Shown: one piece after another, positions 519 to 60,795 of the stretch
Layout: every line of letters starts with the position of its first letter
Numbering within the stretch: position 1 is the stretch's first letter
Assembly (NCBI GenBank): GCA_963555825.3
Contig: CAUVXB020000002.1
Location: 1,888,001 to 1,952,000 of the forward strand
DNA: 64,000 bases
Direction: 5' to 3'
Source: Alphaproteobacteria bacterium
GTDB lineage: Bacteria > Pseudomonadota > Alphaproteobacteria > JAAXGF01
The notes under the pieces: generated by a model
What the model was told of the DNA's origin: nothing
What the model saw: the letters and a program-made list of their open reading frames with translations, nothing else
Databases searched by the model: none
Position numbers and translations under genes: made by a program

Positions 519-2411
519 TCAGGCGGCGCCCTTGGTCATGACGGCGGCCATGCGGCGTGCGAAGGCCTGGATGTCGGCCGGCGGTTCGCCCTCGAGAATG
601 CGCGCCTGATCGAGCAATAGATGCGCCGCGTCGGCCAGCTCGTCGGCCGCGCCCTCGGCGCCGACGCGCTTGGCCAGCGCGCGGATCATCGGGTGCTTGG
701 GGTTGATCTCGAGGATGCGCGCGGCCGATTGCCCGACCCGGTCGTGCTGCTTCAAGAGTCGCTCGATGTGCATGTCGAGGTCGCCCTCGCCGGCGACCAG
801 GCAGACCGCGCTGTCGGTCAGCCGCGCCGAGACGCGGACGTCCTTGACGGCGTCCTTCAGCGTCAGTTTGGCGAGCGCGATGAGGTTGTCGATGTCGGTG
901 TCGCCGACACCGTCTTCCGGCGCCGCCTCATCCTCGTCCTTCGCTTCGATTGCGATCGCGTCGAGGTCGAGGTCGCCCTGGGTGACCGATTTGAAAGGCT
1001 TTTCGGCGTGGGTTTGCATCGCCGGCATCCAGAACTCGTCGACCGGGTCGGAGAGCAGCAGCACCTCGACGCCGCGCGCCGCGAAGGCCTCGATCTGCGG
1101 GCTCTTGCGCAGCGCCTCGACGCTCTCGCCCGAGATGTAATAGATCGCCGTCTGGCCTTCCTTCATGCGCCCGACGTAGTCGTCGAGGCTCGTCAGGTCC
1201 TCGCTCGCGGTCGAGTGGAAGCGGGCGATCGCGATCAGGCGTTCGCGGTTCTCCGTGTCCTCGTAGATGCCCTCCTTGAGCACCGCGCCAAAATTGGCCC
1301 AGAAGGCGGCGTATGCCTCGGGCGCCTTCTCGGCCTTCTTCTTGAGCTCGCCGAGGACGCGCTTGATCAGGCCAGAGCGGATCTTGGCGACCACTGGGTT
1401 GTTCTGCAGCATCTCGCGGCTGACGTTGAGCGGGATGTCTTCAGAATTGACGATGCCGCGCAGGAAGCGCAGATAGCCGGGCACCAGGTCCTCGCAGTCG
1501 TCGGTGATGAAGACGCGCCTGACGTAGAGCTTGATGCGCGAGGCGCGGGTCGGGTCGAACAGGTCGATCGGCCGCGCGTCGGGCACGAACAGCAGGTTGG
1601 TGTAGTCGAGCTTGCCCTCGACCCGGTTGTGGATGGTCAGCCAGGGCTGACCGAACATGTGGCCGACGTGGTGGAAGAACTCGGCGTATTGTTCCTCCGA
1701 GATGTCCTTCTTGGGCCGCGTCCAGAGCGCCGAGGCCGAATTCACCGTCTCGGCCGCGGCGCCGTCGGCGGTCAGCTGGATGGGCAGCGCGATGTGGTCC
1801 GAATAGGTCTTGATGATGTGGTTCAGGCGCGTCGCGTCGAGGAACTCCTTGGCGTCCTTGCGCATATTCATGGTGACCGCCGTGCCGCGCGCGACCTCGC
1901 CCTCGGCGGGGCCGACGGTGAATTCGCCCTGGCCGTCGGAGCGCCATTGCCAGCCCTGGTCCTCGCCCGCCTTGCGGCTGGTGACGACGACCTCCTCGGC
2001 GACCATGAACGCCGAGTAGAAGCCGACGCCGAACTGGCCGATCAGCCCGACGTCCTTGGCCGCTTCGCCGCTCAGCTGCTCGACGAAGGCCGAGGTGCCC
2101 GAGCGCGCGATGGTGCCGAGCTCGGTAATCAGCTCGTCATGGCCCATGCCGATGCCGTTGTCGGCGACGGTGATCGTCTTGGCCTTGGCGTCGAGCGTGA
2201 CGGTGACCTTGAGCTCGGCGTCGCCGGCGGTCAGTTCGGGCGCGGTCAGCGCCGCGTAGCGCAGCCGGTCGCAGGCGTCCGAGGCGTTCGAGATGAGCTC
2301 GCGCAGGAAGATCTCGCGTTCGCTGTAGAGCGAATTTGCGACGATGTGCAGAAGTTTGCCGACCTCGGCTTCGAAGCTGCGCTGTTCGGGGGCTTGGACT
2401 TCGGCTGTCAT
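519..2411 (-). CDS. htpG: Molecular chaperone HtpG (Hsp90)
   Basis: FEAEV..LLH...SLYS.REIFLRELISNASDA, IGQFGVGFYSAF, KLYVRRVFI motifs; start taken at MTAEV. Confidence 0.97.
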   Translation of the reverse strand: MTAEVQAPEQRSFEAEVGKLLHIVANSLYSEREIFLRELISNASDACDRLRYAALTAPELTAGDAELKVTVTLDAKAKTITVADNGIGMGHDELITELGTIARSGTSAFVEQLSGEAAKDVGLIGQFGVGFYSAFMVAEEVVVTSRKAGEDQGWQWRSDGQGEFTVGPAEGEVARGTAVTMNMRKDAKEFLDATRLNHIIKTYSDHIALPIQLTADGAAAETVNSASALWTRPKKDISEEQYAEFFHHVGHMFGQPWLTIHNRVEGKLDYTNLLFVPDARPIDLFDPTRASRIKLYVRRVFITDDCEDLVPGYLRFLRGIVNSEDIPLNVSREMLQNNPVVAKIRSGLIKRVLGELKKKAEKAPEAYAAFWANFGAVLKEGIYEDTENRERLIAIARFHSTASEDLTSLDDYVGRMKEGQTAIYYISGESVEALRKSPQIEAFAARGVEVLLLSDPVDEFWMPAMQTHAEKPFKSVTQGDLDLDAIAIEAKDEDEAAPEDGVGDTDIDNLIALAKLTLKDAVKDVRVSARLTDSAVCLVAGEGDLDMHIERLLKQHDRVGQSAARILEINPKHPMIRALAKRVGAEGAADELADAAHLLLDQARILEGEPPADIQAFARRMAAVMTKGAA

Positions 2412-2462
2412 GGCTACTCTTTCGGTGTCTTCGACGATGTGGCGATCCGCAATTGCGCGCTG

Positions 2463-2493
2463 CATATGGCCCAATTTGGCCCAAGGTTCAAGC
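2463..2493 (-). promoter_or_regulatory. Putative RpoH (sigma-32) promoter of htpG
   Basis: Minus strand CTTGAA ... GCCATAT upstream of htpG resembles the alphaproteobacterial heat-shock promoter consensus. Confidence 0.6.
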
Positions 2494-2537
2494 GTTGAGC
2501 CTTGCAATCGCCCGACGAAGCTCCGATTCTCAGCGTT

Positions 2538-5048
2538 ATGACATCGTCAACCGACACCGCGCCGCGGCTCATCGCCGTGCTCGGCCCGACCAACACCGGC
2601 AAGACGCATCTCGCGGTCGAGCGCATGCTGGGCCACACCAGCGGCATCATCGGCCTGCCGCTGCGCCTGCTCGCGCGCGAGGTCTACGACCGCGTCGTCG
2701 AGCGCGCCGGCCGCGGCGCCGTGGCGCTGGTCACCGGCGAGGAAAAGCTGGTGCCGGCCAACCCGCGCTACTTCGTCTGCACGGTCGAGGCGATGCCGCT
2801 CGACCACCAGACCGCCTTCGTCGCGATCGACGAGATCCAGCTCTGCGCCGACGCCGAGCGCGGCCACGTCTTCACCCATCGCCTGCTGCACGCGCGCGGC
2901 CGCGAGGAGACCATGCTGCTCGGCGCCGAGACGATCCGCCCGCTGATCCGCCGGCTGGCGCCCGACGCGTCCTTCGTCACCCGGCCGCGACTTTCCAAGC
3001 TCAGCTATGCCGGGGCGGCCAAGCTGACGCGCCTGCCGCCACGCAGTGCGGTGGTCGCGTTCTCGGCCGCCGACGTCTACGCGATCGCCGAGTATCTCAG
3101 GCGCCAGCGCGGCGGCACGGCGGTCGTCTTGGGCGCGCTCAGCCCGCGCACGCGCAACGCCCAGGTCGCGCTCTATCAGGCCGGCGAGGTCGACTACATG
3201 GTGGCGACCGACGCCATCGGCATGGGTCTCAACCTCGACGTCGACCACATTGCCTTCGCCAGCCTGCGCAAGTTCGACGGCCGTGTCGAACGGGCGCTGA
3301 GCGCGGCGGAAGTCGCCCAGATCGCGGGTCGCGCCGGGCGCCACATGAACGACGGCAGCTTCGGCACGGCGAGCAATGTCGGCCCGCTCGACCCGGCCAT
3401 CGTCGAGGCGGTCGAGAACCACCGGTTCCCGAAGCTGCGCCACATCAACTGGCGCAACGGCCGGCTGCGCTTCGAATCGCTCAAGGCGCTGCTGCGCAGC
3501 CTCGACGAGGCGCCGCCGGCGCGCGAACTGTCGCGCGCGCCCGACGCCGACGACCATCTGTCGCTCGCCGCGCTGGCGCGCGACGATGCGGTCACGCGCG
3601 TCGCCACCAACCCCGACGCCGTGCGCCTGCTGTGGGACGTCTGCCAGACCCCCGACTACCGCAAGGTCATGGCCGACGCCCACGTCCGCATGCTCGGCCA
3701 GATCTACCACCATCTGATGCATGGCGACGAGCGCTTGCCGACCGATTGGATCGGCCGGCTGGTCGACCGTCTCGACCGCACCGACGGCGACATCGACACG
3801 CTGTCGGCGCGCATCGCCCATGTGCGCACCTGGACCTATGTGTCGAACCGGACCGGCTGGCTCGCCGACCCGGCGTATTGGCAGGGCCGCACGCGTGCCG
3901 TCGAGGACCGCCTGTCGGACGCCCTGCACGAGCGCCTGACCCAGCGCTTCATCGACCGCCGCACGGCGGCGCTGTCGCGGCGCATGAAGCACGACGGGCC
4001 GATCCACGCCGTGGTCGGTGACGATGGCGACGTCGCGGTCGAGAGCCATTTCATCGGCCGCCTCGTTGGCTTTCGCTTCGCCGCCGACGCGGCGAGCGCG
4101 CCCGAGGAGAGCAAGGCGCTGTGGCACGCGGCGAAGCGCGCGCTGCGCAGCGAGATCGCGCGCCGCGCGGTCGCCCTGGCGGGCGACCCGGACGACGCCT
4201 TCACGATCGACGACGCGATGCGGGTACTCTGGCGCGGTGCGCCGGTGGCGCGTCTGGTCGCGGCCAAGGACGTGCTGCGCCCGCGCGTCGAGCCGTTGAC
4301 CAGCGAGTTGCTCGAAGCGCCGGCACGCGACAAGATCCGCCAGCGTCTCGACGCCTGGCTGGTGGCGCGGCTGGCAGCCGACATCGGCCCGCTAACGGCG
4401 CTGCGCGAGGCCGCTCTCGAGGGCGCGGCACGCGGCGTCGCCTATCAGGTCTCCGAAGCCCTCGGCGCGCTGCCGCGGCGCGCCGTCGAACAGCAACTGC
4501 GCGCGCTCACGCCCGCCGACCGCAAGGCGCTCGGCCGGCTCGGCCTGCGCATCGGCAGCGAGGCCGTCTATCTCGCGCCGATGATCGAACCCCACGCGAT
4601 CGCCGCGCGCGCCCTGTTGTGGACGGTCAACGGCAAGCGCCCGGCGGTGCCCGCGGCGCCCGCGCGGAACGCGTTCTCGCTCGCCGTCGACACAAAGCTG
4701 CCGGTCGGCTTCTACGCCGCGCTCGGCTACCGCGTCGTCGGCGGCTGCGCGTTTCGCGTCGATGTCGTCGAGCGCATCGCCGCCAAGGCGCGCAAGCTCG
4801 CCAGGCTCGGACCGTTCACGCCGGGCGCCGACCTCGCATCGCTCGCGCGCTGCAATCCGGCCGACGTCGGTGCGCTGTTGGCCTCGATCGGCTACCGCGC
4901 CGAGCCGCCCGACGCCGGCGGCCTGGTCTGCTACGTCTGGCCCGACAAGCCACGAAGCAAGCGCGCCAGCGGCAAGCCGGCGCGCCGTCGCGGTGGCGAC
5001 GCCGCCTCGCCGTTCGCCAAACTCGCGGAGCTCGGCCTCGGCGAATGA
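2538..5048 (+). CDS. SUV3/MgpS-like ATP-dependent helicase
   Basis: GPTNTGKT Walker A, DEIQ, ATDAIGMGLN, QIAGRAGR helicase motifs. Confidence 0.92.
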   Translation: MTSSTDTAPRLIAVLGPTNTGKTHLAVERMLGHTSGIIGLPLRLLAREVYDRVVERAGRGAVALVTGEEKLVPANPRYFVCTVEAMPLDHQTAFVAIDEIQLCADAERGHVFTHRLLHARGREETMLLGAETIRPLIRRLAPDASFVTRPRLSKLSYAGAAKLTRLPPRSAVVAFSAADVYAIAEYLRRQRGGTAVVLGALSPRTRNAQVALYQAGEVDYMVATDAIGMGLNLDVDHIAFASLRKFDGRVERALSAAEVAQIAGRAGRHMNDGSFGTASNVGPLDPAIVEAVENHRFPKLRHINWRNGRLRFESLKALLRSLDEAPPARELSRAPDADDHLSLAALARDDAVTRVATNPDAVRLLWDVCQTPDYRKVMADAHVRMLGQIYHHLMHGDERLPTDWIGRLVDRLDRTDGDIDTLSARIAHVRTWTYVSNRTGWLADPAYWQGRTRAVEDRLSDALHERLTQRFIDRRTAALSRRMKHDGPIHAVVGDDGDVAVESHFIGRLVGFRFAADAASAPEESKALWHAAKRALRSEIARRAVALAGDPDDAFTIDDAMRVLWRGAPVARLVAAKDVLRPRVEPLTSELLEAPARDKIRQRLDAWLVARLAADIGPLTALREAALEGAARGVAYQVSEALGALPRRAVEQQLRALTPADRKALGRLGLRIGSEAVYLAPMIEPHAIAARALLWTVNGKRPAVPAAPARNAFSLAVDTKLPVGFYAALGYRVVGGCAFRVDVVERIAAKARKLARLGPFTPGADLASLARCNPADVGALLASIGYRAEPPDAGGLVCYVWPDKPRSKRASGKPARRRGGDAASPFAKLAELGLGE

Positions 5049-15085: not shown

Positions 15086-15519
15086 GTAGGTGGATGCTTA
15101 TCCATAAATTCGATTTGGCCTCCATCTTCTTTCATCTTCTGAAATTGCGAACGTTTCCAGCGAAGGTACCAAACTCGAAATTCCGCCCAACCGAATCGAT
15201 AAACGGTATAAATGACCATAATGGTCAAACCGACGCTAAATGAAATCAGCGCGACGAACGGCTCGATCCCCTCCGTGGCGTCAACTTGGCGAGCACCGAT
15301 GTATGCCGCGACCGTGACAGCACCACCAGCATTCACCAAAGTTAGAGACCTCAATGCGTGAGCCACCCACTCCAAGCGATCAGCGTGCCGAGCGCTGAGA
15401 GCATCGTTTAAAGAGCTATTGTCAAAAGTTGTGTATGGGCTGATCATGCGGCGGCGCGATCCTGGCGTTCTCCATCTACGAATTTGACGCCGCGAATGAT
15501 CTCGGCGAGATGGTTCGAT

Positions 15520-16939
15520 TGAGTCGGACCCGATTTCCTTGGACACAGAATTGGCTTAATCGAAGTGTCCAAGGAGGACCGGAACATGACCGACAATTTT
15601 GAGAACAAAGTTGCTGTTGATGGGCCTGTGGTAAACGAGGGCGAGCTTGGCTCGTCCACGTTTTCCCCGGGCCAGGTTTCGCCGGCAGGCCCGCTGGGAC
15701 TTGGCCAGCGGTGGACGGTGACGCGCAAGCGTGAGGTTGCCCTGCGGCTTTTGCGTGGCGAGCCGGTGGAACTTTTGTCGCGGCAGTTGGGCGTGGAGAT
15801 TTTCCGGCTCGAGCAGTGGCGTGAGAAGGCGATCGCCGGGATCGATGCCTCGCTCAAGGAACGCAAGGGCGATCCGGTGAAGGCGGAACTGGACATCGCC
15901 ATGAAGCGGATCGGGGAGTTGATCATGCAGGTGGAACTGCTGGAGGCCAAGACGGAGACGTCCGGCCCTTTGGGGCGGCGGAGGTCGCGGCGATGAGTGC
16001 CGCCACCTCTCCCGGCACGGGTTTGGCCTACGGCCTCCAGCGGGTCTGTGCGGCCTGGGGTTTTGCCCGTTCCTCGTTCTACGCCATGAAATCCCGGCAG
16101 CAGGCCACCGCTGAGCGCCCACCAGCAAAGCGCCGGGGACCGAAGCCCTCGATCTCGGACGAGGCTCTGCTGGTGGCCATCGAGGCCGACCTGGAGGCAT
16201 CCCCCTGGGAGGGCGAGGGACACCGCAAGGTCTGGGCTCGGCTTCGGGTCTGTCGTGGCATCCGTGTTTCCCGCAAGCGGGTGCTCCGGGTGATGCGCGA
16301 GAACAACCTGCTCTCGCCCCATCGCTGCCGCCGCCGTGGCGGAAATCCCCATGTCGGTGAGATCATCACCCATGCCCCCAACCTCATGTGGGGCACGGAC
16401 GGCGTTCGGGTGTTCACGGTGGACGACGGCTGGGGCTGGATATTCACCGCCATCGAGCATTGGAACGCCGAGTGCGTCGGCTGGCATGTGTGCAAGCGAG
16501 GCGACCGCTTCGCCGCCCTTCAGCCGATCTCCATGGGGCTTGCGAGGCTGTATGCCTCGACCTCCGCCGGTGCGGCGCGGGGGCTGGCCTTGCGGATGGA
16601 TCACGGCTCCCAGTATCTGTCGGACCACTTCACCAACCAGATCAAGTTCTGGGGCATCCAGCCGTCCTACGCCTTCGTCGAACAGCCCCAGACCAACGGC
16701 GTCGCCGAGAGGTTCAATCGCACGCTCAAGGAACAGATCATCCATGGCCGCATCTACCGCAACATCGCGGAGCTGCGGAACGCCGTCCGCGGGTTCGTCG
16801 AACAGTACAATGCCCAGTGGATCGTGGAGAAGAACGGCTACCTGAGCCCCGCTCAAGCTCGTCAGGCGTGGCACACCGCGATGTCACTCAGGCCCGCCGC
16901 ATGAGACAAACTTGTGTCCAAGGAACCGGGTGCGATACA
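15520..16939 (+). mobile_element. IS3/IS481-superfamily element copy 1 (orfA 15565-15996, orfB 15993-16904)
   Basis: TG...CA ends with IR core TCCTTGGACACA; rve-type DDE (WGTDG, MDHGSQY, AERFNRTLKE); 15-bp flanking direct repeat with one mismatch. Confidence 0.9.
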
Positions 16940-18211
16940 GCGAGATGATTCGATCCATCGAGTTTTCTCCATTTTCTCTGAGCGCACTGGCATAGTTTGA
17001 AGACCATGGCCATCGCCGTCTTGCGCGACAGGCAGCCCTTGGTCCGGTAGGTGCGCAGACGAACCGTGGCGAACGTGCTCTCGATGGGGTTGGTCGTGCG
17101 TACATGCTTCCAGTGCTCGGCGGGGAAGTCGTAGAACGTCAGCAGGACGTCGCGGTCCTTGGCCAGGCAGGCCGCGGCCTTGTCGTACTTCGGCCCGTAG
17201 GCTTCCAGGAAGAAGTCGAAGGCGCTCTCGGCATCCTTCCTGGTTTCGGCCATCCAGATGTCTTGCAGGCGCCCCTTGGCTTTCTTTTGCAGACCCTTGG
17301 GCAGCTTGTTCAAGACGTTGCCCGTCTTGTGAACCCAGCAGCGTTGCTCGCGGGCGCCTGGGTAGACTTGGCGGAGCGCCTTCCAGAAGCCGAGCGCGCC
17401 GTCGCCGAGCGCCAGTTGCGGACCCATTTCAAGGCCGCGCCGCTTGAGATCGAGCAGAACTTCGAGCCAGGACTGCTCACTTTCGCGATAGCCGTCGGCG
17501 ATGGCGATCAGTTCCTTCTGTCCCTTGTCCGTGGCCCCGACGATCACCAGGATGCACTGCTTCTCTTCCTCCATGCGGGCGCTGAAATAGATGCCGTCCA
17601 CCCAGAAATAGACGTAGCGCTTGGCCGTGAGGTCGCGCCGTTGCCAGCGCTCCGCCTCAACCCCCCAGACCTCTTTCAGCCGGGTGATCGTGGAGGCCGA
17701 AAGCCCCGGCGCGGAGCTCCCCAGGAGCGCCGCCAAGGCTTCCCCGAAGTCGCCGGTGGAAATGCCCTTCAGATACAGCCATGGCAAAAGGTCTTCCAGG
17801 CTCTTGGCGCGGCGCAGATAGCGCGGCAGGATCGCCGACGTGAAGCGGATGGCGCCGTCCCCCCGGTCCCGCACACGGGGTTGGCGCACGCTCACCGGGC
17901 CGATCCCGGTCTGGATGAAGCGTTCCGGCAGATATCCATTGCGGACAACCCGGCGGCGGCCGGCGGCGTCAACAAGCGCCGCATGGCTACCCAAAAACAC
18001 GGAGACCTCGGCCTCAACGGCTTGGGCCAACAACTCGCGAGCTCCAGCTTGTAGGACTTCCGTCAACGGATCTTTCTGAAAATCAGATGGGTTTTGAAAA
18101 GCAACAACGGTATTCTCTTTCATGGCGTATCCTTCCTTGGCTTAGCTCAAGTGGTGACATCAACAATCACCAGGATACGCCGCCTTCATTTCAACGCCGT
18201 ACACAAGATTC

Positions 18212-20012
18212 GACGGGGCGGTAAAAAGTTGTTGGCCGATGGCGTGCTTGTACAGGTCTTTGCGGTTCGGTGAAGAATATTTGCCTGTCTCCGCGTTGCT
18301 GGTGGATAAAACCTGATATTACCTACCCTTGGCTTCTCCTTGGCTTCGTTTTTTATGGTGCGATTGCCGCGCAGCGTCGGATATTGAGGCCGAGGGCACG
18401 CAGATTGACCACGTAGCGCATGGCCGGCATGCCGCGAATGCGTAGGTGAGCCAGGTTCATCTGGTACTTTAATCGCGACATGGTCGCTTCTATGCCGGCC
18501 CGCCATCTGTAGACGTTGCGGAAGGCATCGCTTTGTTCATAAAGCCGGCGCTTTTGGTTGGCAGCCCTGGCCGGGGTATATTGAAAGCGGGAAAATTGGC
18601 CGTCACGCTTGGCCGCCTGCACGGGACATCGCAGTATATCGGGACATTTTTGGCAGATGGAGAGGTCGAAACGGGCCTGCAGCTTGGCTTTGGCGAGCGA
18701 GGCTGAAACCGGTTCGACGTTATTGGGACAGCGCAAGACCAAGCCTTCTTCGTTGAGAGTGAAATCCTCCAACGTCAACCGTCCCGAGACGGCGCCTTTC
18801 GGCGGTCGTGCGGGCGCCACGAGATTGATGTTCTGTTCGCGCGTCAGAGCCATGTTGTCACTGGAACCGTAATGTGAATCACCCAGCATCACCGCCGGCG
18901 TCAGCGCGCGCTCGCTCAGATCATCCAGCGCATCGGCTAAGCGATGGCCGTCATGCACCGTCATCTTGTGGACCTCCACGTGGGTGATGAGGTCCGGTGT
19001 CGCGGCAACCGCCTCGTTACTGACATCTTCACAATAGGTTTCGACGATCTGCGCCATGTATCCTTGACCCTTGTGCGCGTTGTAGCTCGCGTCCGGGTCG
19101 GCCGGATTGCCGACGGTATCGCACGGCACATCCTTTGGATCTCGAATCGCGGCGCGCGTTGCGTCACGATCGCCATACTCATCATCAACGATCTCGAACT
19201 GATCGCGCAGAACCCTCTCCAGGATCGCAAAACTGAAAAGCTTTGCCGCCGCCGTGTCACGGAATTGCAGCACCAGGGCTAGGAGATACTGACCCGCTTC
19301 GCCGAGGCGCCGTTTTGAAACACTCGGCGCCGTATTCGCGAACGCGCCATTACCCTCGCGATCGACATAGCGGCGGATCACCTCCTTGCTGATCTGCTCG
19401 TGCAGACCGGGATGATATCGCTCAAGCTCACGGGCAAACTTCGAGATGCTCTCAACAACGATACCAAGTCGTGTCAGCGCCCGCATTGCCGAACGAAGGG
19501 CCGTCGAATCCATGCGTTGGTGGCTGGTATCGACAGAGAACCCCTGCACCAGCCGATCCGTCAAACACCGGAACAGCAATTCATCGAGACCTTGTTCGAT
19601 AAACAGACGGCGATAGTTGCGCAGGGTTTTCTCACAGAAATAGCTGTCCGCTTCGCTGCGCACGTCCAAGGCATAGTGCCACGCCATATTGAAGGCCAGG
19701 GCCTCGACGGTCTCTGCATCGCTCAGATCGTGCAGCTGCTGCAAAAGCAAGACCCCGATGACAACGTGTAGATCCTTCGATGGTCGGCCCATGCGTTCAT
19801 CAAGGTGACGGCAAAGATCGTCAACCGGAAGTTCGACAAGCAGATGGTTCCGAAAAACCCCGGCCCAGGATTGCTCCATCAGGCGCCGACGTTTGTCCCC
19901 GAAATCGGACCAGCGATCAAACAATTCCCCAGTCCGTCGGTCGCGTAAAGTAAACATGCACAATTATAATCCAGCCGACTCTCATGAGGAATCGACTTTT
20001 TACCGCCCCGTC
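18212..20012 (-). mobile_element. IS1182-like element copy 1 (536-aa transposase 18353-19963), inserted in IS256 IRL
   Basis: IR GACGGGGCGGTAAAAAGT; 7-bp TSD AAGATTC; GRPS...LLQQLHDLSD (DUF772-like) and Y.WRAGIEATMSRLK motifs. Confidence 0.9.
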
Positions 20013-20120
20013 AAGATTCGGTTATAGCTCTCGTTTAAATAGCCTCGAGCGTTGATTATGTCTCTGTCATCATGAGTACGGTCGAATTTCGCCTTGAGGA
20101 AGCTTCCCTCGTTCAAATTG

Positions 20121-20518: not shown

Positions 20519-20680
20519 CTCCTTGTTGCCTTGAAGCCGGGCCGCTTGCAGCAGCGCTGTCCGTCCCGGTGGTCGACCGGTCATCTATCGTTCCTCAAAT
20601 GCGAACCTGCGCGTTCATGATATCATTGCCGACGTAATGAACAGTCTGTTTGATAATGCGGTGCAGTCTATACAGCTGGG

Positions 20681-22100
20681 TGTATCGCACCCGGTTCCTT
20701 GGACACAAGTTTGTCTCATGCGGCGGGCCTGAGTGACATCGCGGTGTGCCACGCCTGACGAGCTTGAGCGGGGCTCAGGTAGCCGTTCTTCTCCACGATC
20801 CACTGGGCATTGTACTGTTCGACGAACCCGCGGACGGCGTTCCGCAGCTCCGCGATGTTGCGGTAGATGCGGCCATGGATGATCTGTTCCTTGAGCGTGC
20901 GATTGAACCTCTCGGCGACGCCGTTGGTCTGGGGCTGTTCGACGAAGGCGTAGGACGGCTGGATGCCCCAGAACTTGATCTGGTTGGTGAAGTGGTCCGA
21001 CAGATACTGGGAGCCGTGATCCATCCGCAAGGCCAGCCCCCGCGCCGCACCGGCGGAGGTCGAGGCATACAGCCTCGCAAGCCCCATGGAGATCGGCTGA
21101 AGGGCGGCGAAGCGGTCGCCTCGCTTGCACACATGCCAGCCGACGCACTCGGCGTTCCAATGCTCGATGGCGGTGAATATCCAGCCCCAGCCGTCGTCCA
21201 CCGTGAACACCCGAACGCCGTCCGTGCCCCACATGAGGTTGGGGGCATGGGTGATGATCTCACCGACATGGGGATTTCCGCCACGGCGGCGGCAGCGATG
21301 GGGCGAGAGCAGGTTGTTCTCGCGCATCACCCGGAGCCCCCGCTTGCGGGAAACACGGATGCCACGACAGACCCGAAGCCGAGCCCAGACCTTGCGGTGT
21401 CCCTCGCCCTCCCAGGGGGATGCCTCCAGGTCGGCCTCGATGGCCACCAGCAGAGCCTCGTCCGAGATCGAGGGCTTCGGTCCCCGGCGCTTTGCTGGTG
21501 GGCGCTCAGCGGTGGCCTGCTGCCGGGATTTCATGGCGTAGAACGAGGAACGGGCAAAACCCCAGGCCGCACAGACCCGCTGGAGGCCGTAGGCCAAACC
21601 CGTGCCGGGAGAGGTGGCGGCACTCATCGCCGCGACCTCCGCCGCCCCAAAGGGCCGGACGTCTCCGTCTTGGCCTCCAGCAGTTCCACCTGCATGATCA
21701 ACTCCCCGATCCGCTTCATGGCGATGTCCAGTTCCGCCTTCACCGGATCGCCCTTGCGTTCCTTGAGCGAGGCATCGATCCCGGCGATCGCCTTCTCACG
21801 CCACTGCTCGAGCCGGAAAATCTCCACGCCCAACTGCCGCGACAAAAGTTCCACCGGCTCGCCACGCAAAAGCCGCAGGGCAACCTCACGCTTGCGCGTC
21901 ACCGTCCACCGCTGGCCAAGTCCCAGCGGGCCTGCCGGCGAAACCTGGCCCGGGGAAAACGTGGACGAGCCAAGCTCGCCCTCGTTTACCACAGGCCCAT
22001 CAACAGCAACTTTGTTCTCAAAATTGTCGGTCATGTTCCGGTCCTCCTTGGACACTTCGATTAAGCCAATTCTGTGTCCAAGGAAATCGGGTCCGACTCA
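20681..22100 (-). mobile_element. IS3/IS481-superfamily element copy 2 (orfA 21624-22055, orfB 20716-21627)
   Basis: 1420 bp, near-identical inverted copy of 15520-16939 (V to G change in orfB); no flanking duplication seen. Confidence 0.9.
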
Positions 22101-55523: not shown

Positions 55524-56633
55524 GTATGATCGACGCTATACAGCACAACAGCAAGAAGAAGCGGCACCCGAAATGCGCAAAACCGCTTAGCAGGGCCGAA
55601 GAGCGCTTCACACGACTAGGTGCCCTGCTCCACGACATCGGTCACTTGGCCGCAGGCCACACCCTGGAAGACGAGCTCGGCCTGGTCGGCCATCATGACG
55701 CCGACGGACGGCTCGATCACATGTTCGAGTCCGACGATTTCAAGAACGTTGAGGACAATACGCTTGCCGAGCTGATCGACAAGGACTACGAGACATACGT
55801 TCCGAATGACCTCAAGAAACAAGGGATTGCCCCCTCTATCCTGGTGCGATTGCTGATTCGCAAGCCGCCGAAAAACCCGGACGAGGATAAACTGAAAGAA
55901 CAACAGGAGGTTCTGGACAAATCCAGGGATCCGCGACTCAACGTCTGCTCCAAAATGATCGCCGACACAGTCTGCGCCGATCTGCTCGATTATCTCCATA
56001 GGGACTGGTTTCATATTGGAAAACCGAGACCTTTCGACGAGCGAATTTTGCAGTACATGGAGATCCGCAATGTCGAAGAGTCTGCGACCGGCAACGAGAT
56101 GTTGCCGAGTGACGAGTTTGTTATCTCCTTGGGCCAGAGCCCGAAAATCAGGACCGACGGCGTTTCGGCCATTCTTGAGCTTCTCGAGTGGCGCTACCAG
56201 CTTGCCGAGACAGTGTTGTTTCACCGCACGAAACTTTCAGCCGCGGCAATGCTCGACCGTGCTTTGTACGAACTTTGGGGCGGCGATAAGGAGGTGAACA
56301 TCGAGAAGATCGTCCTTCCGCTCAGCGATGAGCAGTTAATCGACGTCTGTGCCGATATCGCGAAGTTCAAATTAAAGAACATAAGAAAGCCTGAATCAGC
56401 AAATTCAAAAGAAAGGATTTCCCAGCTGGAAGCTGCCCACAAACTCCTAACGGCCATTAAGCGAAGAGAATTATTTGCGGACTTGAGGACCTATTCCTAC
56501 GGCCAACTAAATTTGGAGGTCCGTAAGGAAGTGAAGAGACTTTATGGCATTGATGGTGATAAAGAGCCCGACAAAGAGAGCCCAAAGAGCCGCACAAGGG
56601 CTCTGCGCCTTATGGAGGATGATTTCGGGCTTC

Positions 56634-59600
56634 GAGCTATAACCGAATCTTGTGTACGGCGTTGAAATGAAGGCGGCGTATCCTGGTGATTGTTGATGTC
56701 ACCACTTGAGCTAAGCCAAGGAAGGATACGCCATGAAAGAGAATACCGTTGTTGCTTTTCAAAACCCATCTGATTTTCAGAAAGATCCGTTGACGGAAGT
56801 CCTACAAGCTGGAGCTCGCGAGTTGTTGGCCCAAGCCGTTGAGGCCGAGGTCTCCGTGTTTTTGGGTAGCCATGCGGCGCTTGTTGACGCCGCCGGCCGC
56901 CGCCGGGTTGTCCGCAATGGATATCTGCCGGAACGCTTCATCCAGACCGGGATCGGCCCGGTGAGCGTGCGCCAACCCCGTGTGCGGGACCGGGGGGACG
57001 GCGCCATCCGCTTCACGTCGGCGATCCTGCCGCGCTATCTGCGCCGCGCCAAGAGCCTGGAAGACCTTTTGCCATGGCTGTATCTGAAGGGCATTTCCAC
57101 CGGCGACTTCGGGGAAGCCTTGGCGGCGCTCCTGGGGAGCTCCGCGCCGGGGCTTTCGGCCTCCACGATCACCCGGCTGAAAGAGGTCTGGGGGGTTGAG
57201 GCGGAGCGCTGGCAACGGCGCGACCTCACGGCCAAGCGCTACGTCTATTTCTGGGTGGACGGCATCTATTTCAGCGCCCGCATGGAGGAAGAGAAGCAGT
57301 GCATCCTGGTGATCGTCGGGGCCACGGACAAGGGACAGAAGGAACTGATCGCCATCGCCGACGGCTATCGCGAAAGTGAGCAGTCCTGGCTCGAAGTTCT
57401 GCTCGATCTCAAGCGGCGCGGCCTTGAAATGGGTCCGCAACTGGCGCTCGGCGACGGCGCGCTCGGCTTCTGGAAGGCGCTCCGCCAAGTCTACCCAGGC
57501 GCCCGCGAGCAACGCTGCTGGGTTCACAAGACGGGCAACGTCTTGAACAAGCTGCCCAAGGGTCTGCAAAAGAAAGCCAAGGGGCGCCTGCAAGACATCT
57601 GGATGGCCGAAACCAGGAAGGATGCCGAGAGCGCCTTCGACTTCTTCCTGGAAGCCTACGGGCCGAAGTACGACAAGGCCGCGGCCTGCCTGGCCAAGGA
57701 CCGCGACGTCCTGCTGACGTTCTACGACTTCCCCGCCGAGCACTGGAAGCATGTACGCACGACCAACCCCATCGAGAGCACGTTCGCCACGGTTCGTCTG
57801 CGCACCTACCGGACCAAGGGCTGCCTGTCGCGCAAGACGGCGATGGCCATGGTCTTCAAACTATGCCAGTGCGCTCAGAGAAAATGGAGAAAACTCGATG
57901 GATCGAACCATCTCGCCGAGATCATTCGCGGCGTCAAATTCGTAGATGGAGAACGCCAGGATCGCGCCGCCGCATGATCAGCCCATACACAACTTTTGAC
58001 GGGGCGGTAAAAAGTTGTTGGCCGATGGCGTGCTTGTACAGGTCTTTGCGGTTCGGTGAAGAATATTTGCCTGTCTCCGCGTTGCTGGTGGATAAAACCT
58101 GATATTACCTACCCTTGGCTTCTCCTTGGCTTCGTTTTTTATGGTGCGATTGCCGCGCAGCGTCGGATATTGAGGCCGAGGGCACGCAGATTGACCACGT
58201 AGCGCATGGCCGGCATGCCGCGAATGCGTAGGTGAGCCAGGTTCATCTGGTACTTTAATCGCGACATGGTCGCTTCTATGCCGGCCCGCCATCTGTAGAC
58301 GTTGCGGAAGGCATCGCTTTGTTCATAAAGCCGGCGCTTTTGGTTGGCAGCCCTGGCCGGGGTATATTGAAAGCGGGAAAATTGGCCGTCACGCTTGGCC
58401 GCCTGCACGGGACATCGCAGTATATCGGGACATTTTTGGCAGATGGAGAGGTCGAAACGGGCCTGCAGCTTGGCTTTGGCGAGCGAGGCTGAAACCGGTT
58501 CGACGTTATTGGGACAGCGCAAGACCAAGCCTTCTTCGTTGAGAGTGAAATCCTCCAACGTCAACCGTCCCGAGACGGCGCCTTTCGGCGGTCGTGCGGG
58601 CGCCACGAGATTGATGTTCTGTTCGCGCGTCAGAGCCATGTTGTCACTGGAACCGTAATGTGAATCACCCAGCATCACCGCCGGCGTCAGCGCGCGCTCG
58701 CTCAGATCATCCAGCGCATCGGCTAAGCGATGGCCGTCATGCACCGTCATCTTGTGGACCTCCACGTGGGTGATGAGGTCCGGTGTCGCGGCAACCGCCT
58801 CGTTACTGACATCTTCACAATAGGTTTCGACGATCTGCGCCATGTATCCTTGACCCTTGTGCGCGTTGTAGCTCGCGTCCGGGTCGGCCGGATTGCCGAC
58901 GGTATCGCACGGCACATCCTTTGGATCTCGAATCGCGGCGCGCGTTGCGTCACGATCGCCATACTCATCATCAACGATCTCGAACTGATCGCGCAGAACC
59001 CTCTCCAGGATCGCAAAACTGGAAAGCTTTGCCGCCGCCGTGTCACGGAATTGCAGCACCAGGGCTAGGAGATACTGACCCGCTTCGCCGAGGCGCCGTT
59101 TTGAAACACTCGGCGCCGTATTCGCGAACGCGCCATTACCCTCGCGATCGACATAGCGGCGGATCACCTCCTTGCTGATCTGCTCGTGCAGACCGGGATG
59201 ATATCGCTCAAGCTCACGGGCAAACTTCGAGATGCTCTCAACAACGATACCAAGTCGTGTCAGCGCCCGCATTGCCGAACGAAGGGCCGTCGAATCCATG
59301 CGTTGGTGGCTGGTATCGACAGAGAACCCCTGCACCAGCCGATCCGTCAAACACCGGAACAGCAATTCATCGAGACCTTGTTCGATAAACAGACGGCGAT
59401 AGTTGCGCAGGGTTTTCTCACAGAAATAGCTGTCCGCTTCGCTGCGCACGTCCAAGGCATAGTGCCACGCCATATTGAAGGCCAGGGCCTCGACGGTCTC
59501 TGCATCGCTCAGATCGTGCAGCTGCTGCAAAAGCAAGACCCCGATGACAACGTGTAGATCCTTCGATGGTCGGCCCATGCGTTCATCAAGGTGACGGCAA

Positions 59601-59816
59601 AGATCGTCAACCGGAAGTTCGACAAGCAGATGGTTCCGAAAAACCCCGGCCCAGGATTGCTCCATCAGGCGCCGACGTTTGTCCCCGAAATCGGACCAGC
59701 GATCAAACAATTCCCCAGTCCGTCGGTCGCGTAAAGTAAACATGCACAATTATAATCCAGCCGACTCTCATGAGGAATCGACTTTTTACCGCCCCGTCAA
59801 CTTTTGACAATAGCTC
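56634..59816 (+). mobile_element. IS256-family element copy 2 (intact transposase 56733-57977; IRR interrupted)
   Basis: Ends GAGCTATAACC / GACAATAGCTC; 9-bp TSD TCGGGCTTC (56625-56633, 59817-59825). Confidence 0.95.
57998..59798 (-). mobile_element. IS1182-like element copy 2 (transposase 58139-59749), inserted in IS256 IRR
   Basis: Same 1801-bp element as 18212-20012 (one F/S difference in the protein); 7-bp TSD AACTTTT. Confidence 0.92.
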
Positions 59817-60795
59817 TCGGGCTTCCGCGCGGAAGCATTGCCATGTATTGCGCCGAGATGAATCCGAAACTTGCCGAGGTCTCCATTGCAGTAGGCGACG
59901 AAGTTGCGCACTTCCACCAATATGAACTGAACAACAACAATGTGCTTTCAGGAGGTCACCTGGGGGCCCAGATTCGCCGGTTCGAGTATCTTTGGCGCGT
60001 CCACTTCTTCGTCGACCGAAAGACAAAGCTCTTCCTGGACGAGAACAATCTGTCGATCACCTTGAACCGCGCGATACGATCGCACGTCTTGGGCGATCTC
60101 CGTGACGAAGACCGCGAGCAGGTCGTCTGGGAACTCGCCAAAACGCTGGCGAACCACAAGACTTCCAAATGGCATGGGAGAGCAGTGAGGGGCCCTTCGT
60201 TGGAAACGGCGGCCAAAGCCGACAAGAGTGTCGCGGAAATTTATCCGACTGGATTGCCGCGCATTCAGTCCTACTTCGAAGACTCCGATCGGAGCAAATG
60301 AAGAGCGAGACCATACAGCGCTACCGCTGTGCCCTTGCGGCCAATGCATCCAGCCTATTCGATCACTCCCCGAATTTGCCGGTGTGTTTTGAGCGAATTT
60401 GTGCCTTTCTGAAGGCCGAGGTCGTTTACAGTGACAAAGTGGCCAGAAACCAGGCGTATCTGCGCAAAGAAATTAAGCGAGGCGAGTTCGTGAAAATTCT
60501 GTTGTCGCCAAGTGGACTCGGATCGCCGTATGAGCGATTTTACATTGCTCACGAACTCGCGCACCTCTTGCTGTGGCGAATTTACAAGGCAGTCCCACAC
60601 GGATCGAGCGAATACTGGCAATTCGAAGACATCTGCGACGAGTTCGCCAGGACCTTGTTGATGCCGGAGGTTGAGGTGCGGCACCGGCTTGCGGCGGAAC
60701 CACGCCACGCTACGACTATGCTAAAGGCGAGTTATCGGCTCGCAAACCTTGCCAAGGCACCTTGGGCGCAGTCAGCCTACCGCATATCGGAATTA

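Follow-up and report, generated by a model that had tools for sequence, protein, structure and literature searches.

An IS1182-like insertion sequence occupies a fixed position in the terminal inverted repeats of IS256 elements

The 64,000-nucleotide stretch of alphaproteobacterial DNA analysed here (assembly GCA_963555825.3, contig CAUVXB020000002.1, positions 1,888,001 to 1,952,000; hereafter the window) contains two copies of a 1801-bp, loosely IS1182-like insertion sequence (IS), which we named isA, and each copy splits a terminal inverted repeat of an IS256-family element at the same distance from the tip. The locus raises the question of whether this placement is a rule and, if so, what the element recognises. 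Our results showed that nearly all isA flanks lay in IS256 termini in one exact register throughout the genome, and that a motif learned in a second genome, where no IS256 was found, pointed to the same termini. Insertion of one IS into the terminal repeat of another element is a known phenomenon, and isA is distinguished by its precision, by this natural control genome and by the conservation of the pattern in several phyla. The 18-bp preference deduced from its natural sites is enough to single out 54 sites among 6 million positions.

Insertion sites of isA in the window and its genome

Copy 1 of isA (18212-20012, transposase on the minus strand) was 100% identical to the blastn query and carried perfect 18-bp inverted repeats at both ends, the element running from GACGGGGCGGTAAAAAGT to ACTTTTTACCGCCCCGTC. 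The repeat distal to the transposase start, GACGGGGCGGTAAAAAGT, lies at 18212-18229 on the plus strand, and its perfect reverse complement at 19995-20012 on the minus strand. The transposase open reading frame (ORF; 18353-19957, minus strand) encodes 534 amino acids from an ATG, or 536 from an upstream TTG at 19963. The 7-bp target duplication AAGATTC is present as an inner copy at 18205-18211, preceded by TACAC, and as a tip-side copy at 20013-20019, followed by GGTTATAGCTC at 20020-20030 (minus strand). This last sequence is the reverse complement of GAGCTATAACC, the outermost 11 bp of the left inverted repeat (IRL) of the host element IS256-a, severed from it by isA, and the duplicated bases are positions 12-18 of that repeat, as comparison with the intact IRL at 56634-56651 shows. 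Copy 2 (57998-59798, minus strand, 1801 bp) differed from copy 1 at 1 of 1801 bases and retained an intact 534-amino-acid ORF. It lies in the right inverted repeat (IRR) of an IS256-a element, between TACAC-AACTTTT (inner duplication at 57991-57997) and a tip-side AACTTTT at 59799-59805, followed by the outermost 11 bp of the IRR, GACAATAGCTC (59806-59816, plus strand). A first-pass annotation of this DNA had described an 1801-bp element with a 7-bp duplication ending 11 bp from the IS256 tip, and rereading of both copies bore this out, tip positions 12-18 being occupied in each. It had also held the two insertions to be independent, which agrees with their different duplications and different IS256 ends.

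The sequence split by isA is a genuine IS256 terminus, since an uninterrupted IRL of the same IS256-type element, GAGCTATAACCGAATCTTGTGTACGG, is present at 56634. This IRL belongs to host copy 2 (56634-57997, plus strand), which would measure 1375 bp with isA removed and lies between the two copies of a 9-bp duplication of its own, TCGGGCTTC (56625-56633 and 59817-59825). The body of host copy 1, with its IS256-family transposase, occupies 16944-18211 on the minus strand, and an IS3-family element lies between this body and its other end. An IRR end fragment at 15413-15520 (plus strand) still holds an intact and empty target site (GAGCTATTGTC AAAAGTT GTGTATGG), which is among the top-ranked sites of the weight matrix described below (C2 1903424). 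The host transposase matched Pfam Transposase_mut (PF00872, 1.3e-58) and the NCBIfam IS256 model NF033543 at 320 bits, against a cut-off of 150. Members of the IS256 family are about 1.3-1.5 kb long, have imperfect terminal repeats and duplicate 8-9 bp of their target, and IS256-a conforms to this format with its 1375 bp, its ends GAGCTATAACCGAATCTTGTGTA and GAGCTATTGTCAAAAGTTGTGTA and the 9-bp duplication.

The genome of the window is a 6.04-Mb assembly of two contigs (C1 and C2), in which blastn with isA gave 52 high-scoring segment pairs, 25 of them covering query positions 1-1801. With the tip side defined as ATAGCTC within 1 mismatch at outward positions 12-18, the 74 readable end flanks comprised 39 tip-side flanks, 32 inner-side flanks of IS256-a or of a second element, IS256-b, and 3 others. 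Thus 71 of the 74 flanks lay in IS256-a/b termini in one exact register, with the duplication at tip positions 12-18, which established both the site and its register. This agreed with the proposal of the first-pass annotation that the element targets IS256 terminal inverted repeats at a fixed offset, and the possibility that most other copies would lie at unrelated sites was not realised. Two of the remaining flanks were tip variants with a 1-nucleotide indel, and the third was the partner flank of a look-alike site outside IS256, site c (C1, about 863-866 kb), around which no IS256 gene was present within 2.5 kb.

Overall, one third of the GAGCTAT-type tips were occupied (37/112), which represents a clear quantitative case of parasitism of one IS on another. 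Occupancy was 13/38 for the left and 14/43 for the right ends of IS256-a; for IS256-b it was 10/15 at the end GAGCTATAGCT GAATCTT and 0/16 at the other end (GAGCTATGTCC GAAAGTT GGTGACGG), a difference with a Fisher p of 7e-5. Examples of IS256-b ends are located at C2:3268665 and C2:3270014. Tip-side junctions were divided almost equally between the two orientations (20 vs 19, binomial p=1). The first-pass annotation had noted a shared orientation, which is true of the two window copies and does not hold genome-wide; their agreement is a coincidence and not a rule. Three other IS256-family elements in the genome (22, 4 and 4 copies, 20-30% amino acid identity to IS256-a), whose tips begin GGAGATGTCCC, CGGGGATGTCCC and GGTCGTGTCCC, were absent from all 74 readable flanks. 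A tblastn search for a second member of the isA family in this genome gave only fragments of less than 95% identity.

Three end types were each entered in both orientations and, together with three variant sites, make up at least nine insertion classes, which are not interconvertible by copying. Moreover, among the 24 isA copies of exactly 1801 bp, which differ at 18 informative sites, identical haplotypes were found across different end types and orientations, so isA itself must have moved between targets. Nesting in the reverse direction was also observed. At C2:2831924-2835108 an isA copy is split by a 1375-bp insert with a 9-bp query overlap (query 1-248 and 240-1801), which fits insertion of IS256-a, whose length it shares. 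Inserts of about 1156 and 1416 bp interrupt further isA copies.

Target motif, relatives and derived structures

The sequence preference could be read in G001, a long-read metagenome-assembled genome (MAG) labelled Amylibacter sp., which carries an element nearly identical to isA (99%). G001 gave 34 isA matches, of which 31 were full length with 98-99% identity. The IS256 transposase model NF033543 had 0 matches in this genome, whose nature as a MAG of uncertain completeness leaves absence short of proof, and no IS256 match was found within 2.5 kb of any isA locus scanned. From 61 distinct flanks (half-sites), read outward from the element ends, the core was R at position 1 (56/61), A at position 2 (58/61), T at position 6 (55/61) and Y at position 7 (52/61), followed by G at position 8 (41/61) and C at position 18 (37/61), with binomial p values from 1e-32 to 3e-4 across the tested positions. 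The consensus of positions 8-18, G-R-T-T-A-T-R-R-C-Y-C (weak at 9-18), reads as GGTTATAGCTC, which is the left tip of IS256-a in reverse complement, and the degenerate motif as a whole is RANNNTY followed by G-N3-ATAGCTC. In the pooled counts the two sides of the element shared one consensus, and the preferred site may be a loose palindrome. A likeness between the end of isA and its target (GACGGGGCGGTAAAAAGT vs GAGCTATTGTCAAAAGTT, 8/18 matches by eye) was considered and dropped, the middle of the duplication not being conserved in G001.

A weight matrix was built from the G001 half-sites only (6.7 bits per half), and sites were scored as the sum of both halves over 6,042,393 positions of the window's genome. 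The 54 intact IS256-a tips, in the correct register, filled ranks 1-54 without exception; the 16 unhit IS256-b ends took ranks 60-75 and the five intact IS256-b ends of the hit type ranks 84-88. When flank positions 8-18 alone were scored over 59,166 RANNNTY cores, the IRL tips of IS256-a ranked 1-38 and the IRR tips 42-84. A motif learned where no IS256 was found thus predicts IS256 tips, which favours direct readout of the sequence and disfavours a requirement for the IS256 transposase; targeting appears to be independent of the IS256 transposase gene. Recognition of TACACAA-N5-G-N3-ATAGCTC, or of IS256 transposase bound to it, had been proposed in the first-pass annotation. The DNA sequence was favoured over the bound protein by the 31 full-length copies in a genome with no IS256 match, and the string itself needed revision. 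Its inner TACAC is not required, because IS256-b ends read TCACC and are hit all the same; the informative part is RANNNTY with G-N3-ATAGCTC on the tip side.

Rearranged flanks were observed in G001 as well. Among its full-length copies (loci L080-L109 and L012), 18/31 had non-matching flanks, and AATTCTC stands both to the left of L098 and to the right of L097. Such cross-pairing indicates probable inversions or deletions by recombination between copies.

Among the candidates scored, 809 homologues of the isA transposase were found at E of 0.001 or better, and a scan of one genome per species supplied 79 loci. Copies of 97-99% amino acid identity (97.5-99.2% nucleotide identity; L001-L031, L033, L036, L037 and L047) were observed in long-read MAGs labelled Rhodospirillales, Paracoccaceae, Amylibacter sp. 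and Alphaproteobacteria, and this near-identity across families and orders suggests that the element recently passed between distantly related alphaproteobacteria by horizontal transfer. More distant members came from Rhizobiaceae, Cypionkella and Hyphomicrobium, from Latescibacterota, Thermoanaerobaculia, Spirochaetaceae and Rhodothermales, and, within Planctomycetota, from Pirellulales, Phycisphaeraceae and the cultured Singulisphaera acidiphila DSM 18658.

At least one flank was readable in 63 copies from genomes other than the window's and G001. ATAGCTC was present at outward positions 12-18 within 1 mismatch in 34/63 and within 2 mismatches in 39/63, where chance would give 22/16384 per flank, or about 0.17 copies. 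By amino acid identity to the window transposase, the motif was found in 10/18 copies at 95-100%, 12/18 at 65-95% and 12/27 at 45-65%; the 12 positive copies of the last bin came from MAGs labelled Planctomycetota (several orders, including Pirellulales and Phycisphaeraceae) and one Latescibacterota MAG. For the Spirochaetaceae and Thermoanaerobaculia copies only an inner-side flank was scored in each. The pattern is thus conserved in distant relatives, and those at 50-88% amino acid identity keep both the repeats and the register in MAGs labelled Planctomycetota, Latescibacterota and several alphaproteobacterial groups and, beside an IS256 transposase, in a Thermoanaerobaculia MAG. A habit kept down to about 50% identity seems to be a stable way of life and not a chance feature of a single genome. 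An IS256 transposase was adjacent in 15/63 copies, including Thermoanaerobaculia L051, Planctomycetota L055 and L075 and Latescibacterota L073. Adjacency of an IS256 gene was set aside as a test of targeting, since within about 600 bp it is too insensitive, many contigs being short or the IS256 body gone; the in-register tip motif is the better test. Plasmid p186_1 of the cultured Bradyrhizobium sp. 186 (L111) carries, near 1720, an annotated IS256-family element that is 65% identical in amino acids to IS256-a. Its tip reads GAGCTATCGCC AAATTTT GGTGACGG and may therefore offer a target in a strain that can be grown.

Several loci contained structures that could derive from such insertions. Tandem isA-type copies 7 bp apart were found at L004, L037 and L050, and copies abutting another end of their own kind at L058 and L072; re-use of a retained tip half-site would give both arrangements. 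At ten loci (L032, L035, L038, L044, L054, L065, L068, L071, L037 and L110) the element was flanked by tips on both sides with no IS256 body. In L110, on plasmid pMVF16-1 of the cultured Microvirga sp. VF16 (2434-4253), and in L037, a tandem pair at 1146-4788, inverted 18-bp IS256 tips flank the element or elements, and the whole resembles an IS256 with its interior replaced. The simplest reading of this tip-element-tip structure is that two copies recombined and the IS256 body was thereby deleted, and such chimeras may also be mobilised by the IS256 transposase. Direct repeats outside the tips were present in 2 of the 10 loci (9 bp in L110 and 8 bp in L037; ATGGAGTGG and ACGGGCGG), which does not decide between deletion of the body and mobilisation. 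Targeting by isA explains both the nested and the tip-element-tip structures, which confuse IS annotation.

Explanations for the site choice

We consider it highly probable that the isA transposase picks its targets by direct readout of DNA and that IS256 tips are the best natural match to its preference. The 7-bp core RANNNTY is cut with a 7-bp stagger and thereby becomes the duplication, and G-N3-ATAGCTC adjoins it on one side at least. Among natural sequences this site is best matched by the outermost 18 bp of a widespread IS256 subgroup with tips of the form GAGCTAT-N4-RANNNTY. Where such an IS256 is present, nearly every insertion falls 11 bp inside an IS256 tip in either orientation, and where it is absent, degenerate look-alike sites are used. 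The transposase, or the transposase-end complex, would itself make the base contacts with no host or accessory factor; to our knowledge, target-specific DDE transposases that need no accessory protein are uncommon. Splitting of the IS256 repeat after position 18 would part the cleaved tip from the inner part and would disable that end. Immobilisation of IS256 by isA is plausible, and if insertion does disable IS256, isA shapes the dynamics of IS256 in IS-rich genomes. The habit would also offer isA a safe, multicopy and horizontally travelling landing site that moves with IS256.

Three other explanations were weighed against direct readout. It is very unlikely that isA is guided by protein, recognising the IS256 transposase or its complex with DNA on the IS256 repeat. 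The very high occupancy of IS256 ends in the window's genome would suit such guidance, and the asymmetry of the IS256-b ends, which the matrix does not explain, could reflect protein occupancy; however, the same motif was used in G001 with no IS256 transposase match, and it predicts the IS256 tips of the window's genome. Moreover, IS256-family elements with other tips are missing from isA flanks, and tip-element-tip structures without an IS256 body and look-alikes such as site c are used too. Passive multiplication of a few real insertions, by gene conversion, by segmental duplication or by transposition of an IS256::element composite by the IS256 transposase, seems equally improbable as the source of the pattern. 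All copies within a class do share the same duplication and position, and IS-rich genomes recombine, mismatched flanks being frequent both in G001 and, as hybrid flanks at C1 1654569, in the window's genome. Such copying may inflate the copy number but cannot create the pattern, as the insertions fall into at least nine independent classes in both orientations, the same element haplotype occurs in different classes, and the register is seen again, with other duplications, in further genomes and phyla and at look-alikes outside IS256.

Least credible of all, with a probability close to nil, is random insertion followed by selection, in which only insertions into harmless DNA such as other ISs survive. 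Insertions into an IS are expected to be near neutral and this genome is rich in ISs, but selection cannot fix one 7-bp register within the about 1375 bp of IS256, and the single register already contradicts it. It likewise cannot spare about 30 other IS256-family copies, and the G001 sites have the motif outside any IS.

Several observations count against direct readout or limit its reach. The matrix scored the never-hit IS256-b end slightly above the hit end (20.4 vs 18.9). Neither the matrix nor flank position 10, which was considered as an explanation of the unhit end, accounts for this asymmetry, so a factor beyond the modelled sequence preference must matter. Among the relatives, 29/63 lacked the tip within 1 mismatch; none of the 4 Singulisphaera acidiphila copies had it, nor did the single copy from Rhodothermales. 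A perfect 7-bp duplication was kept in only 24/49 relatives with both flanks readable and in only 13/31 G001 copies, and such frequent imperfect duplications imply that many sites were rearranged since insertion. The lack of IS256 in G001 carries the reservation on completeness given above, and there were fewer independent insertions than copies if occupied IS256 elements were themselves multiplied by gene conversion or segmental duplication. Finally, the AlphaFold2 model of the transposase was poor, with a mean predicted local distance difference test (pLDDT) score of 55.4 and a predicted template modelling (pTM) score of 0.33, and supports no structural claim.

A broader proposal extends direct readout to the whole multi-phylum IS1182-like clade, which would be a specialised parasite of GAGCTAT-tipped IS256. 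Its single-protein DDE transposase would read about 18 bp of target with almost site-specific accuracy, each insertion would sever the cleavage tip from the remainder of the IS256 repeat and disable that end, and recombination between copies would remove the IS256 body and leave tip-element-tip structures, the resulting chimeras perhaps being mobilised by the IS256 transposase. We regard this as tentative and, taken as a whole, rather unlikely. If it were true, the clade would be a natural brake on IS256 expansions and would provide a simple sequence-directed DDE integration system.

Classification of isA and related systems

Elements of the IS1182 family have one ORF and short terminal inverted repeats and measure roughly 1.3-2 kb, and isA fits this format with its 1801 bp, perfect 18-bp repeats and single 534-amino-acid ORF. 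Its transposase matched the Pfam domains DUF772 (PF05598, 1.9e-12), DDE_Tnp_1_6 (PF13751, 2.9e-13) and DDE_Tnp_1 (PF01609, 1.6e-08), all above the gathering scores, and shows the arrangement typical of the family, with an N-terminal DUF772 and a C-terminal DDE_Tnp_1 / DDE_Tnp_1_6. The best NCBIfam IS model was NF033551 (transpos_IS1182), which aligned residues 42-533 of the protein with model positions 31-487 of 488 and scored 172.6 bits, below the cut-off of 270, and annotated plasmid IS1182 transposases were about 27% identical to that of isA. The name IS1182-like, taken over from the first-pass annotation, was thus upheld by the best model and weakened by its score and by the low identity; for these two reasons we use it only loosely, for a distant and distinct clade. 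isA appears to be an autonomous IS from such a clade distantly related to IS1182, and not a demonstrated member of the family. The ends of the clade are recognisable as a conserved 18-bp GACGGGGCGGYAAAAAGT, which is found in the relatives too. Residues about 390-480 of the transposase (window 18524-18793, minus strand) were among the few confidently modelled parts (pLDDT 85-93). Four cysteines invariant in the transposase alignment (C412, C437, C440 and C446) lie in this segment, a possible small metal-binding domain within the catalytic part of the protein.

The named members IS1182, IS1272, ISPse1, ISPye18 and ISMno10 resemble isA in that a single ORF encodes a DDE transposase with the domains DUF772 and DDE_Tnp_1_6 and in that the terminal repeats measure about 16-18 bp. 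Some are also selective of their target: in PMC5678879, IS1272 of the IS1182 family is described as targeting inverted-repeat structures without a duplication. Besides the model score and identity given above, isA differs from them in its 7-bp duplication, which compares with none for IS1272 and 4 bp for ISPse1 (the latter from PMC3281130); since the lengths vary among members, the duplication does not define the family. PMC11578231 further describes IS1182-related miniature inverted-repeat transposable elements with 4-bp repeats.

The closest functional parallel to isA is given by IS4321 and IS5075; isA works like this group and is not a member of it. IS110/IS1111-type elements generally insert in a single orientation relative to their target. 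IS4321 and IS5075 are said to belong to the IS1111 family, going by the title of Partridge and Hall 2003. According to PMC8269217, both insert into the terminal inverted repeats (TIRs) of the Tn21 family, which confirmed a precedent cited in the first-pass annotation, and IS5075 also enters the chromosomal gene ureC, the 3' end of which resembles the Tn21 TIR. isA likewise takes a fixed position in the terminal repeat of another transposon, always tip positions 12-18 of IS256, and the use of ureC is paralleled by the look-alike sites of isA-type elements in G001. In contrast to these elements, isA has a DDE transposase (DUF772, DDE_Tnp_1) instead of an IS110-family enzyme, its repeats are terminal rather than subterminal, and it duplicates 7 bp of its target and enters in either orientation (20 vs 19). 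A further comparison is offered by IS231A of the IS4 family, which prefers the ends of Tn4430 and whose target choice has been described by a model of consensus plus bending. Both are DDE ISs with a target duplication and a sequence-defined preference that coincides with the ends of another transposon, and they differ in family, target and duplication length. No report of an IS1182-like element targeting IS256 ends was found in the literature searched; ISfinder/TnPedia and supplements lay outside this search, and a database note could exist.

In the window, two inverted IS3-family copies, at 15520-16943 (plus strand) and about 20677-22099 (minus strand), bracket the IS256-a::isA structure together with about 650 bp of other DNA. 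The ORF at 15993-16904 has rve and HTH_21 domains and scored 156 bits with the IS3 model, against a cut-off of 160. One of the two IS3-family copies splits host copy 1 of IS256-a, and a 15-bp near-repeat (GCGAGATGGTTCGAT / GCGAGATGATTCGAT) is present at two junctions, which is longer than a simple IS3 duplication.

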